Position numbers and translations under genes: made by a program
Assembly: GCA_030665925.1 (NCBI GenBank)
Contig: DAOUYX010000001.1
Span: 1-25,880 of the forward strand
Origin: Methanosarcinales archaeon
GTDB taxonomy: Archaea; Halobacteriota; Syntropharchaeia; Alkanophagales; Methanospirareceae
DNA length: 25,880 bases
Reading direction: 5' to 3'
Notes under the pieces: model-generated
Told to the model about the DNA's origin: nothing
Seen by the model: the letters and a program-made list of their open reading frames with translations, nothing else
Database searches by the model: none
Shown here: piece by piece, positions 8,073 through 24,243 of the stretch
Position numbering within the stretch: the stretch's first letter is position 1
Layout: each line of letters begins with the position of its first letter

Positions 8073-9053
8073 CTAAACATACGATTTATGAGCTGTCATC
8101 TCTTTTTCGTAGATGCTCCTCAGTGCATCTGCCATATCAGCATAGCAATAATAGCTGGAATGCGCTGCTTTGTGCTCATACACAGAAATACTCTTCTTCA
8201 CTCTTTCCATTGCAGAGTCAAGCTTTACCCACCGGAGATCAACTGAATCTTCAGGTTTATAACTACTATCTGCAATCTTTGTGGTATATCCCTTTTTCTT
8301 CAGTACTGCACTAATCTCTTCGTATGTCAGTTCATCGCTCACATATCGGCCAATGAGCTGTTTTACACGCGTTAGTTCATCCCGCCTTCTAATTCCATAT
8401 CTTTTATCATCATTCAATGTGGGTGGAGTCGCTAAACCAGCAAATGAGGGAATATAAGGTGTTTCTAAAAAGGTATCAAAAGCGGATTCTTTAGCTTCGC
8501 TCAATTCCCTAAAGAATTTTAGGATGTCGTCTCTTCTGGGCATTCCCAAAAAACCCAGCGTTTCCATGATGACCAAGGGGTCCTCATAAGAACCCATCCC
8601 GTTTTCTTCGTCCCGTGCTTTCAAGAAACTCCTGAGACCTTCGCGCGTAACTTCGACAAGCGCATCGGGAATGAAATGTGCAGCTCGCAAATTCGCCCTT
8701 TGCAGTGGTGTGATAAACTCTTTCTGTTCCCACAGGAACAGCGAGAAATTATAGGGATAATATTCATCCATATCCGCAAGATAAGCGAAGTTATGCCCAA
8801 TGATACCGAATTTTGCTAAAATAGAGGGATAATAATCGAACTTTATATGAGCATTTGGCGTTGAGAACCGCATCTCTCGTTCTGCCGGGAATATAAGCGC
8901 GGGATTTTTAAATTGATACCAGATAGAAGGATCGTATTCAATCCTGAAGCTTTTGAAAGCTTCGGTTTCAAAGTATCTCAGCATCATCTTAAATGCCTTA
9001 TCCCACTCCAGTTTGATCTTTGCTATCAGGTGCGACAAATCGGTTTCTTTCAT
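8073..9053 (-). CDS. Hypothetical protein (326 aa)
   Basis: Long uninterrupted ORF with protein-like composition; no family recognised. Confidence 0.8.
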   Translation of the reverse strand: MKETDLSHLIAKIKLEWDKAFKMMLRYFETEAFKSFRIEYDPSIWYQFKNPALIFPAEREMRFSTPNAHIKFDYYPSILAKFGIIGHNFAYLADMDEYYPYNFSLFLWEQKEFITPLQRANLRAAHFIPDALVEVTREGLRSFLKARDEENGMGSYEDPLVIMETLGFLGMPRRDDILKFFRELSEAKESAFDTFLETPYIPSFAGLATPPTLNDDKRYGIRRRDELTRVKQLIGRYVSDELTYEEISAVLKKKGYTTKIADSSYKPEDSVDLRWVKLDSAMERVKKSISVYEHKAAHSSYYCYADMADALRSIYEKEMTAHKSYV

Positions 9054-9071
9054 TTTTACTTCCTATTGCAA

Positions 9072-9232
9072 CTTGACTTTGTCACATTTCAAATTTACCG
9101 CAGAGAACGCGGAATTAGAGGTTTAGTTTATTAGCGGTTCAGCTCGTTAGCTAAACCTCCAAACCTCTAAACCCCTAAACCTACATCCTCTGCGTTCTCC
9201 GTGAACTCCGCGGTTAATCTAACAATGTCAAT
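9072..9232. mobile_element. MITE/REP-like element A (161 bp)
   Basis: Ends match element B in inverted orientation (36/39 and 54/56 nt); TGAC-N3-GTCA tips; 4x8-bp tandem CTAAACCT at 9151-9182. Confidence 0.7.
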
Positions 9233-9291
9233 GTAGTAATTATAAAAACATCTCACGACTATTTATTAGATCGGAGCTTCAATCAGAGATT

Positions 9292-9708
9292 ATGCCAAAA
9301 TGGGAAGTGCATGATAAATGGGCGGAGAAGCTGGAGCTATCCAAAGAAATTGCGAACTTTGTCAATCAGTTAAGTGACTTCCCTGACAAAACTCAGGAGT
9401 TTATGGAGTTCTGTGAGCGAGAAGGAGAAGAGATAATTTTGCAACTAGTAAGGACTCACGATTTTGAAATGATAATGAAGATTCCTAAGTATCTCCAGTT
9501 AGCGTTTGCGCGTCAAAAAGGGAGTGAATACGTGATGGCTTGGTATTTGCATTACGTCATGGATTACATACGAATGGCACCGGCACTCACTGCTGAGGAA
9601 ATACTAAAAAGAACTGAAGCTATATTTGAGCCATGTCAAGAGTTGGAAATTGTCAAAAGGTTTGTACGGGAAAACGCAGAAGAATTAGTATGCGATTGCA
9701 GGGCGTAG
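9292..9708 (+). CDS. Hypothetical protein, possible metal-dependent hydrolase
   Basis: 138 aa with H7, D29-x-P, H56-D57 and H87-x3-D91; this spacing recalls PLC/P1-nuclease/YdjM-type helical hydrolases (inference). Confidence 0.7.
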   Translation: MPKWEVHDKWAEKLELSKEIANFVNQLSDFPDKTQEFMEFCEREGEEIILQLVRTHDFEMIMKIPKYLQLAFARQKGSEYVMAWYLHYVMDYIRMAPALTAEEILKRTEAIFEPCQELEIVKRFVRENAEELVCDCRA

Positions 9709-20704: not shown

Positions 20705-21391
20705 TCAGCACAGTAGCCACACTTCTTCTTCCCCTTCTTTTTTTCTTTCACTTTTTATCTTACCGTGATATGCCATATTCTCCAATACTTCATTGAGAAG
20801 GTGACGTGGCACATAAAAGTCGAACTCTTGCTTCATAGCAGTCTTTAAGTCATGCAGACTCATCCCGTTCCCTTCTTTAGCAATGACCCGCTCTAACAAT
20901 TCCATTACGTCCTCATGAATGCTCCAAGGATAGACCACCCACTTCCAATCGCTTATAAGCTCGCCGTAAAAATCGGGAACGTACGAGGAAGACGCTTTGT
21001 GCTGCATCGTTACGGTTTTTACGTCCCGTGCTCCCAAGGATTTAACGTACTCAGCCACAAGTTTTAAGCTGTCTCCAGTGTCCGTTATGTCATCTACTAT
21101 TAGTACTCGTTTCCCCCTTATTATCTCCCGTGCTCTGTCGTCAAGCCCGTATTTCAGCTTCGCATCGCCAGTAATCGTGGCTGCTATACCCCAGTGCTCC
21201 ATCTTCAAGCTGAACAAGTCCTTAAGCAGGAAGAAATCGCAGAGATTGCGCGCTAAAAACCAGCCACCTCGTGCCACGCCAACGATAACCTCGGGCTTGA
21301 ATCCCGCAGCCTTTATCTCTTCGCTTGCGTCCTTGCAAAGGTCGTACGCGTAGTTCCAGTCAACCACCGTGCAGTTGAATTTCTCTTGCAT
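20705..21391 (-). CDS. Type I phosphoribosyltransferase (purine PRTase-like, COG2236)
   Basis: IVGVARGG, PRPP-binding VLIVDDITDTGDSL, WVVYPW. Confidence 0.92.
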   Translation of the reverse strand: MQEKFNCTVVDWNYAYDLCKDASEEIKAAGFKPEVIVGVARGGWFLARNLCDFFLLKDLFSLKMEHWGIAATITGDAKLKYGLDDRAREIIRGKRVLIVDDITDTGDSLKLVAEYVKSLGARDVKTVTMQHKASSSYVPDFYGELISDWKWVVYPWSIHEDVMELLERVIAKEGNGMSLHDLKTAMKQEFDFYVPRHLLNEVLENMAYHGKIKSERKKEGEEEVWLLC

Positions 21392-21426
21392 GAATCTCAG
21401 CTCACTTCCTCATAAATTTATTCGTT

Positions 21427-21446
21427 CACTACTCGTTGAAGTAGTG
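21427..21446. promoter_or_regulatory. Operator-like inverted repeat upstream of the PRTase gene
   Basis: CACTACT-N6-AGTAGTG, perfect 7-bp arms about 35-55 nt upstream of the start codon. Confidence 0.35.
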
Positions 21447-21482
21447 TTGGTTATATCCCTTACTATTTCTGTCTGTATATAA

Positions 21483-21785
21483 CTTGACATTGTCAGATTA
21501 ACCGCGGAGTTCACGGAGAACGCAGAGGATGTAGGTTTTAGGTTTGTTTTTGTATATAAAGTATAACTGCCTTCTCTTTAAGACACTGATTTACACTGAT
21601 TCACACGGATTTATTTCTTTTTGTGGTTTTTTTTCATCTGTGTTCATCTGCGTTAATCTGTGTCAACGATTTAGGTTTTCTCGTGGGGCTGCGGCTATTA
21701 ATACCTGACAACTAAGACCTAACACCTTATTTTCTCTGTGAACTCAGCGTTCTCTGCGGTAAATTTTAACTATGACAAAGTCAAG
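21483..21785. mobile_element. MITE/REP-like element B (303 bp) with nested palindrome C, flanked by ATAA direct repeats
   Basis: CTTGAC...GTCAAG termini; ATAA at 21479-21482 and 21786-21789; ends match element A; nested triple 10-bp inverted arms at 21584-21610 and 21636-21664. Confidence 0.75.
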
Positions 21786-21802
21786 ATAATTAAGAGTTTT
21801 GT

Positions 21803-23077
21803 ATGAGGATAGGCGGAGAGAAGAAGGTGAAAGAGACAGTAGAGAAAAAGGAGACGCAGAAGTATCTTATAGGTTGTCTCAAGGATTTGATCAGGATACC
21901 GACGTTCGTGCCGCCGGGTGAGCATTACGGCGAGATAGTAGATTGGCTTATTCCCGTGTTTAACGATCTTGGATTCAAATGCGAAAGAGTGGATATGCCC
22001 GTGGATATTTATGAATCACGGCAAAGGACAGAGGAGTTGAGCGGTGTAAGAGCGAATCTGCTCGCCACTAAGGATTACGGTGCGAAGGAAAGTGTGGACG
22101 TCTATACGCATTTAGACGTGGTTCCAGCAGGAGAAGGCTGGAGTACGCCTCCCTTCGAGCCGGTGATTAAGGACGGCAGAATCTACGGACGCGGGGTGGC
22201 GGATTCAAAAGGGAGTGTCGCATCACTTTTAACTGCGCTGCGCATTATGAATGAGCAGGGATTAGAGGGCAAGTACAATATTCGGGTTGCGTTGACTACG
22301 GACGAGGAACTGGGGCTCTACTCGGGTTTGTGCTTCTTCGCCGATGAAGGATTATTACAAGGCGATTATTTACTGTGCATGGACGGCGATAACGAAGGGG
22401 TGTGCGTGGCAACGAATGGTGTGATGAACTGGGAGATGAAGGTGCTGGGTAGATCGTGTCATAGCTCTATGCCGTTTTTAGGTGTGAATGCGATAGAAAA
22501 CGCGGCGGTCGTGATACGCGAGTTAGAGGCACTGAAGAAAGCCGTTGCGCAAAGGGAATCGAAGGTACCGTGCAGTTCAGAGATGACAGAAATAACTGGG
22601 CAGAAGCACATAAAGCCTGTTTTTAACGTTACGATGATAAACGGTGGTGTGAAGGAGAATCTTATACCTCCGAGCTGCACCTTACGAGGTGACCGGCGCT
22701 ATATTCCCGAAGAAGCGGTTGAGGACGTGGTAAAAGAGTTTGAAGCCGCAGTAGAAACCATAAAAACGAGGCGTGGAATAGATTTAGAACTGTATCTTAA
22801 ACCCGGATTCCCACCCCTGTTTACCGATTCCGATGACGATGACGAATGGGTAACTCGGGTGAAGGATGCAGCATCCGACGCTTTTGGCGTGTCTAAAGAG
22901 ACGATAGGTGTGCAAGGGGGGTTAGACATTGCTTATGCGGTTAAAAAGACGCATCAGCCGGTTTGTGCTCTTGGCGTTGGTAGTTGGACCGAGAGCAATG
23001 CGCATGGACCTGATGAGAACGTTCGGATAAGCGATTTGAAGAATTACGTGAAGTTTTTGATAAGGCTGTTGACGTGA
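21803..23077 (+). CDS. M20 family metallopeptidase (ArgE/DapE-like)
   Basis: HLDVVP, YGRGVADSKG, DEELG, GRSCHSS, NAHGPDE motifs. Confidence 0.93.
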   Translation: MRIGGEKKVKETVEKKETQKYLIGCLKDLIRIPTFVPPGEHYGEIVDWLIPVFNDLGFKCERVDMPVDIYESRQRTEELSGVRANLLATKDYGAKESVDVYTHLDVVPAGEGWSTPPFEPVIKDGRIYGRGVADSKGSVASLLTALRIMNEQGLEGKYNIRVALTTDEELGLYSGLCFFADEGLLQGDYLLCMDGDNEGVCVATNGVMNWEMKVLGRSCHSSMPFLGVNAIENAAVVIRELEALKKAVAQRESKVPCSSEMTEITGQKHIKPVFNVTMINGGVKENLIPPSCTLRGDRRYIPEEAVEDVVKEFEAAVETIKTRRGIDLELYLKPGFPPLFTDSDDDDEWVTRVKDAASDAFGVSKETIGVQGGLDIAYAVKKTHQPVCALGVGSWTESNAHGPDENVRISDLKNYVKFLIRLLT

Positions 23078-24169: not shown

Positions 24170-24243
24170 TTTATTTTCGTATACAAAATATAACTGCCTT
24201 CTCTTTAAGACACAGATTAACACTGATTTACACGGATTTATTT
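24170..24243. repeat. Solo left arm (D) of nested element C
   Basis: 24189-24243 matches 21562-21616 at 52/55 nt; weaker similarity extends about 19 nt further upstream; no right arm follows. Confidence 0.8.

Follow-up and report, generated by a model that had tools for sequence, protein, structure and literature searches.

The window is the whole stretch of 25,880 nucleotides that was analyzed, and it belongs to a genome bin (G000) of ANME-1/Methanophagales that comprises 1.46 Mb in 197 contigs with 45% G+C and is 74% complete. The genes in the window encode an archaeal EF-1alpha, a methenyl-H4MPT cyclohydrolase, HdrB/C-like proteins, XPB-Bax1, and an ArcS-type transglycosylase. The window also carries two copies, A and B, of a short repeat element, each located between divergently transcribed genes, and none of the 20 large ORFs encodes a transposase. 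In an inverted-repeat search of the window, no pair was longer than the two arm pairs of A and B, and the two copies are in opposite orientation, as had been noted. The right-arm pair joins 9170-9231 with 21484-21545 (62 nt, 94%) and the left-arm pair joins 9072-9116 with 21741-21785 (45 nt, 89%). The features of the two copies, which are treated below as MITEs, and of one related remnant are as follows.

9068 to 9071, no strand: left target-duplication copy of A, GCAA, degenerate; GTAA is found once at the empty site in G012 and G006.
9072 to 9232, plus strand: MITE copy A (161 bp); it shares 94% identity with G000:C64:1440-1591, and G011, G012, and G006 have an empty site here.
9072 to 9088, plus strand: left tip of A, CTTGACTTTGTCACATT, which agrees at 17/17 positions with the IRR of an IS701-family IS at G069:C103.
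9097 to 9113, plus strand: left subterminal arm of A, formed by two units with a 9-bp period, ACCGCAGAGAACGCGGA, with the array design of the 5' arms of alpha-type GxxExxY cassettes.
9114 to 9181, plus strand: interior of A, a hairpin module that contains no gene and features GGTTTAG / CTAAACC arrays, which are also found on either side of the PF05635 gene G000:C58:3657-3971 and of its relatives.
9188 to 9214, minus strand: right subterminal arm of A, three 9-bp units reading ACCGCGGAGTTCACGGAGAACGCAGAG on the minus strand, recognized by pattern match and conservation.
9213 to 9232, minus strand: right tip of A, degenerate, ATTGACATTGTTAGATTAAC, corresponding to the IRL of the IS701-family IS.
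9233 to 9236, no strand: right target-duplication copy of A, GTAG, degenerate, recognized by comparison with the empty site.
21479 to 21482, no strand: left target-duplication copy of B, ATAA; G008:C96 has a single ATAA (...GCGTAT-ATAA-TTAAGAG...).
21483 to 21785, minus strand: MITE copy B, 303 bp, a standard copy with a nested insert, defined by blastn, the empty site, and comparison with a sibling.
21483 to 21527, plus strand: IRL-like tip of B (21483-21502) and three-unit arm (21501-21527), from tip comparison and array pattern match.
21546 to 21685, minus strand: nested gene-less 'gamma' GxxExxY-type cassette in B with inverted 10-bp CACAGATTAA-type arrays and the tail GGCAGTTATACTTTATATACAA; it is absent from the sibling MITE G006:C240, matches G000:C117:2392-2526 at 135/135 positions, and has the arms that surround an intact PF13366 gene at G063:C198.
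21734 to 21785, minus strand: three-unit arm (21734-21760) and IRR-like tip (21769-21785) of B, from tip comparison and array pattern match.
21786 to 21789, no strand: right target-duplication copy of B, ATAA, with a single ATAA at the empty site.
24170 to 24243, minus strand: solo half of a gamma-type cassette remnant upstream of the minus-strand ORF 24119-23769; it is related to the insert of B and is not a part of the MITE.

The tips of A and B are CTTGACTTTGTCA and CTTGACATTGTCA, and each is followed by units with a 9-bp period, as the original prediction described. Alignment by blastn against the whole 1.46-Mb genome reproduced the predicted 36/39 identities between the left ends of the two copies (E 2.6e-9), and the likeness of the right ends was likewise recovered, with 54/55 identities (E 1.9e-23) in place of the predicted 54/56. 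The left arm of A keeps only part of the array, two units (9097-9113) against three in B, which is also what had been noted. Copy A is built from an IRR-like tip, a two-unit alpha-type arm, a gene-less module of the four-helix-bundle type (9114-9181), a three-unit arm, and an IRL-like tip. Copy B has the same frame around another center and in addition the gene-less gamma cassette of ~139 bp (21546-21685), and it is longer than A because of this nested cassette. The interiors of A and B gave no alignment, consistent with the earlier reading, since their centers are of different cassette types. Folding of copy A gave a long hairpin with a z score of -4.3, and the hairpin module of its interior is also found outside MITEs. 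No coding remnant or ORF was detected in A or B, and an Rfam search of the window matched no family.

A and B belong to a family whose copy number goes far beyond the two copies in the window. G000 contains 17 paired copies and one truncated copy (~18), and the left-then-right order of the ends is constant. The usual length of a copy is 140–165 bp, compared with 303 bp in B with its nested insert. The terminal inverted repeats read CTTGAC(T/A)TTGTCA at both ends and are extended by the inverted three-unit arms. All copies in G000 are intergenic, they occur in every sort of gene context, and none overlaps a real ORF. In 5 of the 18 copies (C72:1604-1743, C85:9393-9556, C128:46-208, C145:17670-17814, and C113:3909-4051) the stop codon of a gene lies no more than 1 nt away.

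Among the other genomes of the same GTDB family that were searched, 12 of 24 gave blast matches to the MITE, compared with 0 of 16 genomes outside this family, and the distribution within the genus is patchy (6/15 genomes). A search with the 13-nt tip CTTGACWTTGTCA gave matches in 44 of 61 family genomes, with ~0 for the reversed control. The exact right-end pattern is present on 87 contigs that are labeled ANME-1, Methanophagales, or, loosely, Methanosarcinales, Syntrophoarchaeum, Methanobacteriota, or Halobacteria. The summed contig depth at the repeat-bearing bins of the window (8871-9341 and 21117-22058; runs X1, X3, and X5) is 100- to 3000-fold over that of the single-copy flanks, for example 37,288 vs ~12, which indicates that the repeat families are extremely abundant in the assemblies of the whole sediment community.

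Target duplications were determined for 38 distinct complete copies taken from G000 and from fetched ANME-1 loci. Identical 4-mers directly outside the tips were found in 20 of the 38 copies, and all 20 conform to NTAN. Control positions shifted by 1–8 nt gave 0–1 matches in 38, and the flanks of different copies match in 7.1% of pairs. The ATAA repeats that had been seen around B are present at 21479-21482 and 21786-21789, and the site is empty, with a single ATAA, in G008, G014, G011, G006, and G012. In G008, with flanks that are 92–95% identical, the site reads ...GTCTGCGTAT-ATAA-TTAAGAG..., compared with ...ATAA[303 bp]ATAA... in G000, and B was inserted after G000 and G008 had diverged. 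Environmental contigs from runs X5 and X6, which belong to two other studies, join position 21475 to 21786, and the contigs of the source sample (X1 and X3) are broken at the repeats and bridge neither A nor B. Copy A had been described as showing no clear duplication. Its site is empty in G011, G012, and G006, and the comparison of GTAA in G012 and G006 with GCAA[161 bp]GTAG in G000 indicates that A is an older insertion with a decayed duplication. The NTAN target can itself be a TAA or TAG stop codon that is regenerated by the duplication. In the relative with an empty site, insertion B corresponds to the sequence TATATAA, ~20 nt upstream of a peptidase ATG, and this TATATAA may be the TATA box of the peptidase gene.

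In sister genera, pairs of the same tips lie 1.65–1.8 kb apart and enclose one ORF of ~455 aa. Intact insertion sequences of this kind are G056:C25 (1653 bp, target duplication TTAG), G074:C168 (1664 bp, TTAG), and G050:C294 (1814 bp, GTAA). The G056 and G050 ORFs match Pfam DDE_5 (PF13546) with E values of 2e-55 and 2.8e-48, and they score 320 and 306 bits against the NCBIfam IS701 family transposase profile (NF033540), for which the curated cut-off is 150 bits. The G074 ORF is 84% identical to the G056 ORF. A second IS subgroup is 38% identical, has the tip TTTGACAATGTCA, and makes a TTAT duplication (G073), and this tip variant is present on some MITE copies. The right-end consensus of the MITE, CTTGACATTGTCAGATTAAC, matches the IRL of the ISs in G069, G016, and G048 (CTTGACtTTGTCAGATTAAC) at 19/20 positions, and the left end CTTGACTTTGTCACATT matches the IS IRR at 17/17, so the two distinct ends of the MITE are the two ends of the IS. 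Decay intermediates are also found, including a 1250-bp IS in which the transposase gene is broken and the duplication is TTAC, and tip-only elements of 41–80 bp. The duplications of the IS701 family are exactly 4 bp, and its ends have been given the signature ---YACT-Y--YR, which is not representative of the whole family according to the same paper (De Palmenaer et al. 2008, PMC2266710). The tip CTTGACTTTGTCA agrees with 6 of the 7 specified positions of this consensus, which does not cover the whole family, and has G rather than Y at position 4.

No IS701 gene or IS DNA was found in the 74% complete G000 by tblastn with two transposases, blastn with five ISs, or the profiles PF13546 and NF033540, and a protein search reported no IS701 transposase in G008, a close relative rich in MITEs. 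The absence from G000 is weak evidence because of this completeness and because IS copies are cut off at contig ends. IS ends are present at G044:C46 and G069:C40/C182 though the protein search gave no transposase there, and at several loci the G044 and G069 contigs stop after 125–140 nt of an IS copy, a stretch that includes the IRL and the first transposase codons. The partner ISs are systematically lost from short-read bins.

Inward of the tips, the MITE ends differ from the IS ends. They are at least 90% conserved across genera for ~45–50 nt, and only 17–20 nt per end are common to the IS, with the conserved subterminal part absent from the ISs. This part holds a triple array, ACCGC-N-GAG NN CRC-N-GAG NN CRC-N-GAG, that occurs in 22 of 38 ANME-1-family genomes (up to 71 matches per genome) and in 7 of 262 other genomes of the phylum. 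G000 has 92 two-unit arrays, compared with 0–1 in shuffled sequence, of which 47 are tipped and 45 lie outside the MITE in other repeat families. At least 4 further repeat families of G000 feature ACCGC-N-GAG triple arrays of 9-bp units with other outer ends, e.g., the TIR CACTGTCTAAAAATCTAGTGATTTATCACCGC; families of this kind are located at C29 5560-5700, C58 5165-5300, C72 11260-11400, C82 4430-4560, C93 5270-5400, C155 3060-3160, and elsewhere.

Arrays of this design also bracket genes. An internally deleted GxxExxY (PF13366) gene lies exactly between such arrays at G000:C52, and at G044:C17 arrays at 28977-29003 and 29398-29424 surround a PF13366 gene at 29023-29373. Across the family, intact PF13366 genes lie between inverted arrays whose unit is specific to the gene subfamily. 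The alpha unit is of the 9-bp CGCNGAG type found in the MITE, the beta unit is of the 10-bp CACGAGATTA type, and the gamma unit is of the 10-bp CACAGATTAA type and is accompanied by the tail GGCAGTTAGACTTTATATAC (in the copy inside B the tail reads GGCAGTTATACTTTATATACAA). A similar packaging is found for four-helix-bundle (PF05635) genes, with at least 5 different units, one of which is the GCGGTTTAG/CTAAACC type around G000:C58:3657-3971. At the ANME-1-family loci, each PF13366 and PF05635 subfamily lies between inverted tandem arrays of its own 7–14-bp unit; those seen are CGCNGAG, CACGAGATTA, and CACAGATTAA for PF13366 and GCGGTTTAG, GGTGTGAG, AGGAATTAGGG, AGCCAATAGGGAAT, and ACAGGAT for PF05635. 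This correspondence suggests a cognate recognition between the protein, or the hairpin, and the arms. Many cassette remnants keep only the N-terminal part of the gene and represent decay towards gene-less palindromes. PF13366 is listed as 'function unknown' (PMC3424549), and the few papers on GxxExxY/PF13366 give its function as 'unknown'.

The gamma insert of B has no target duplication and is missing from the sibling MITE G006:C240. The gamma-type gene-less cassette (window 21546-21685 and 24170-24243, G000:C117:2392-2526, and ~30 other copies) has the conserved tail GGCAGTTATACTTTATATACAA, which resembles an archaeal BRE/TATA promoter and usually lies 10–30 nt upstream of the ATG of the next gene, so gamma remnants may supply or replace promoters. 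No tip-bounded element holding a GxxExxY or four-helix-bundle gene was found among the fetched loci. A specific match of the left and right MITE arms to the alpha 5' and 3' arms was considered and rejected, since a hand count gave 21/27 vs 19–21/27 and did not discriminate between them.

Taken together, A and B are very probably copies of a non-coding ANME-1 (Methanophagales) MITE whose transposition depends on an IS701-family DDE transposase supplied in trans. Copy number, end pairing, target duplications, empty sites, and the tips and target rule common to the ISs of sister genera are direct observations, and from these we infer the act of mobilization itself and the identity of the enzyme-supplying IS copy, none being present in the G000 assembly. 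The transposase would recognize the 17–20-nt tips as counterparts of the IS ends, with the right end of the MITE taken as IRL and the left end as IRR. It would then cut out or copy the element and insert it at an NTAN target that is cut with a 4-bp stagger, and repair of the cut would leave the 4-bp direct repeat. The original prediction had proposed mobilization in trans without naming the enzyme; the trans reading holds, and the enzyme is assigned here to the IS701-family DDE transposases of sister genera. Among the genes that had been suggested as cargo of longer copies, an IS transposase was found, and neither GxxExxY nor four-helix-bundle genes encode the mobilizer. Their part in the element is another one, as the arms of their cassettes match the subterminal arrays and the interior of A.

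Judged by its composition, the MITE is most likely a chimera of IS701 tips around a gene-less cassette, because the part of each end beyond the tip is not IS sequence but an array of GxxExxY-cassette design. The element would have originated when IS701 tips were wrapped around a gene-less cassette, and its variable center would have repeatedly taken up other gene-less cassettes, of the four-helix-bundle type in A and of the gamma GxxExxY type in B. Only 17–20 nt per end are IS-like, compared with the 45–50 nt per end that are conserved, which suggests that the arms may matter for movement beyond what the IS requires. An extended form of this model is a double parasite, in which GxxExxY-cassette arms acquired IS701 tips and both parts are functional. 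A protein encoded by the cassette, or the hairpin itself, would then take part in the excision, integration, or taming of the insert, and this role would account for the conservation of the arms, at least 90% over ~45–50 nt across genera. This extended form is considered rather doubtful. If it is true, it would be the first case of repeat-armed cassettes moving with a defined enzyme, target site, and footprint.

A point against an IS701-family mobilizer is that no IS701 was found in G000 or G008, yet insertion B postdates their split, an objection that is weakened by the incomplete bins and truncated IS copies described above. The same gap favors an explanation in which the copies are gene-less GxxExxY-type cassettes that spread by the cassette's own mechanism, e.g., a nuclease acting on the array arms, and in which the IS701-like tips are incidental. 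The arm design is the one that brackets PF13366 genes, the arms are conserved well past the IS-like tip, tipless and tipped array palindromes have similar frequencies in G000 (45 vs 47 two-unit arrays), and a gene-less gamma cassette has recently entered copy B. However, the 4-bp NTAN duplications begin exactly at the tips, and these tips match the IRL and IRR of IS701-family ISs, which produce duplications of that same kind. The gamma cassette in B has no target duplication, so cassette-type entry looks different from MITE entry, and a purely cassette-driven spread is therefore regarded as improbable. It is even harder to assign the movement to another transposase of G000. An IS4-family gene on C153 and a 639-aa DDE_Tnp_1 gene on C180 are the sole DDE transposase genes obtained from targeted profile searches of G000, but the MITE tips are on neither contig, both proteins give weak NF033540 matches below the IS701 cut-off, and IS4-family duplications are ~7–13 bp (PMC2266710), not 4 bp. 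Mobilization by either gene is very improbable.

The least probable of the explanations considered is that the copies are not MITEs but regulatory or structural palindromes of the REP/BIME kind that are maintained by the host and multiplied by recombination or by a REP-associated HUH transposase. The original prediction had called the element MITE/REP-like. The copies are indeed intergenic and hairpin-forming (z -4.3), and they adjoin gene starts or stops. The target duplications and clean empty sites, the patchy distribution within one genus, and the lack of an Rfam match argue against this reading, as does a search of the 74% complete G000 that did not find a Y1/HUH transposase (PF01797). 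The REP/BIME reading is largely refuted by the target duplications already, and the MITE half of the earlier description stands with the paired copies, the duplications, and the empty sites.

A MITE copy at G044:C31:50339-51081 has a TTAC duplication and a ~560-bp nested insert of another element, whose marks are a TIR (GCTTTGCTAATAAAG) and a duplication of 10 bp (TTCTCGGCGG). A transposase-like ORF fragment (…GIQPKNGTSWGYVYFTLDWLG…ADRELFN…) at G000:C93:1-900 runs off the contig end and is located downstream of the truncated MITE left end at C93:2340-2404. At G008:C118:4323-6541, two inverted MITEs, each with TTAA on its outer side, enclose genes for a transporter-like protein of 293 aa and a protein of 176 aa, and the left flank and the interior of this segment are missing from G000. 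The segment G080:C4:17644-18968 is tip-bounded, contains two tandem ORFs (158 and 168 aa), and also has TTAA on both outer sides. The G008:C118 and G080:C4 segments may be composite or cargo-carrying non-autonomous transposons, or may have arisen by chance. A candidate long tip-bounded element at G024:C46 was rejected, because its two right ends, 2.6 kb apart, belong to separate small copies around ordinary genes.

The ANME-1 archaea, which have not been cultured, play a key part in marine methane oxidation, and nearly all that is known of them comes from fragmented genome bins. The IS701-type MITE provides these archaea with a defined, abundant MITE family that has a named partner transposase and the target rule NTAN, and this rule puts copies in AT-rich intergenic DNA near gene starts and right at TAA/TAG stops. 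The family explains at least some of the contig breaks in the bins, as several contigs end inside a MITE or IS copy, and its copies are markers for strain-level population studies and a candidate source of regulatory change. The mosaic body links DDE transposition, with its duplications and empty sites, to widespread repeat-armed cassettes, the mobility of which has so far been without direct footprints. Here the cassette arms are seen moving with a defined enzyme family, target, and footprint, and the gamma insert in B is a case in which the arrival of a gene-less cassette at a new site can be dated.

The Correia elements of Neisseria and the SM elements of Sulfolobus are classical prokaryotic MITEs, and the ANME-1 element shares with this class a length below 600 bp, a non-coding sequence, terminal inverted repeats, target duplications, many intergenic copies, and hairpin potential. 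It differs in that its body consists of arms taken from unrelated small gene cassettes and is not an internally deleted IS. REP elements insert without a target duplication and require a Y1 transposase. The dispersed intergenic palindromes of REP/REPIN systems with RAYT (HUH) proteins likewise occur in many copies, whereas the ANME-1 MITE has duplications and the search of G000 did not find a Y1 gene. The MaeMITEs of Microcystis are a further published example of prokaryotic MITEs (PMC2779907).

The agreement with the IS701 family (PMC2266710) lies in partner ISs with a DDE_5/NF033540 transposase and duplications of exactly 4 bp, and in a MITE that shares 17–20 nt with the IS at each end and follows the same NTAN target rule. 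Unlike the members of this family, the MITE has no transposase gene and contains IS sequence in its tips only, and the ANME-1 ISs are 1.65–1.8 kb in length compared with the typical 1.4–1.55 kb. The GxxExxY and four-helix-bundle cassettes share their unit design with the subterminal arrays of the MITE and with the interiors of A and B, but the MITE lacks such a gene and has IS701 tips and a 4-bp duplication. The nearest published work on repeat-armed cassettes concerns ORF-bearing intervening sequences of 23S rRNA (Coxiella IVS, PMC4990558), and the Ssn nucleases with their cognate repeats (PMC11893778) are a looser functional parallel. No description of ANME-1 MITEs was found in the literature searched, and short ISs were filtered out in a 2026 paper on ANME-1. 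MITEs and the IS701 family are each well known already, and what is new here is the hybrid of IS701 tips and a gene cassette.
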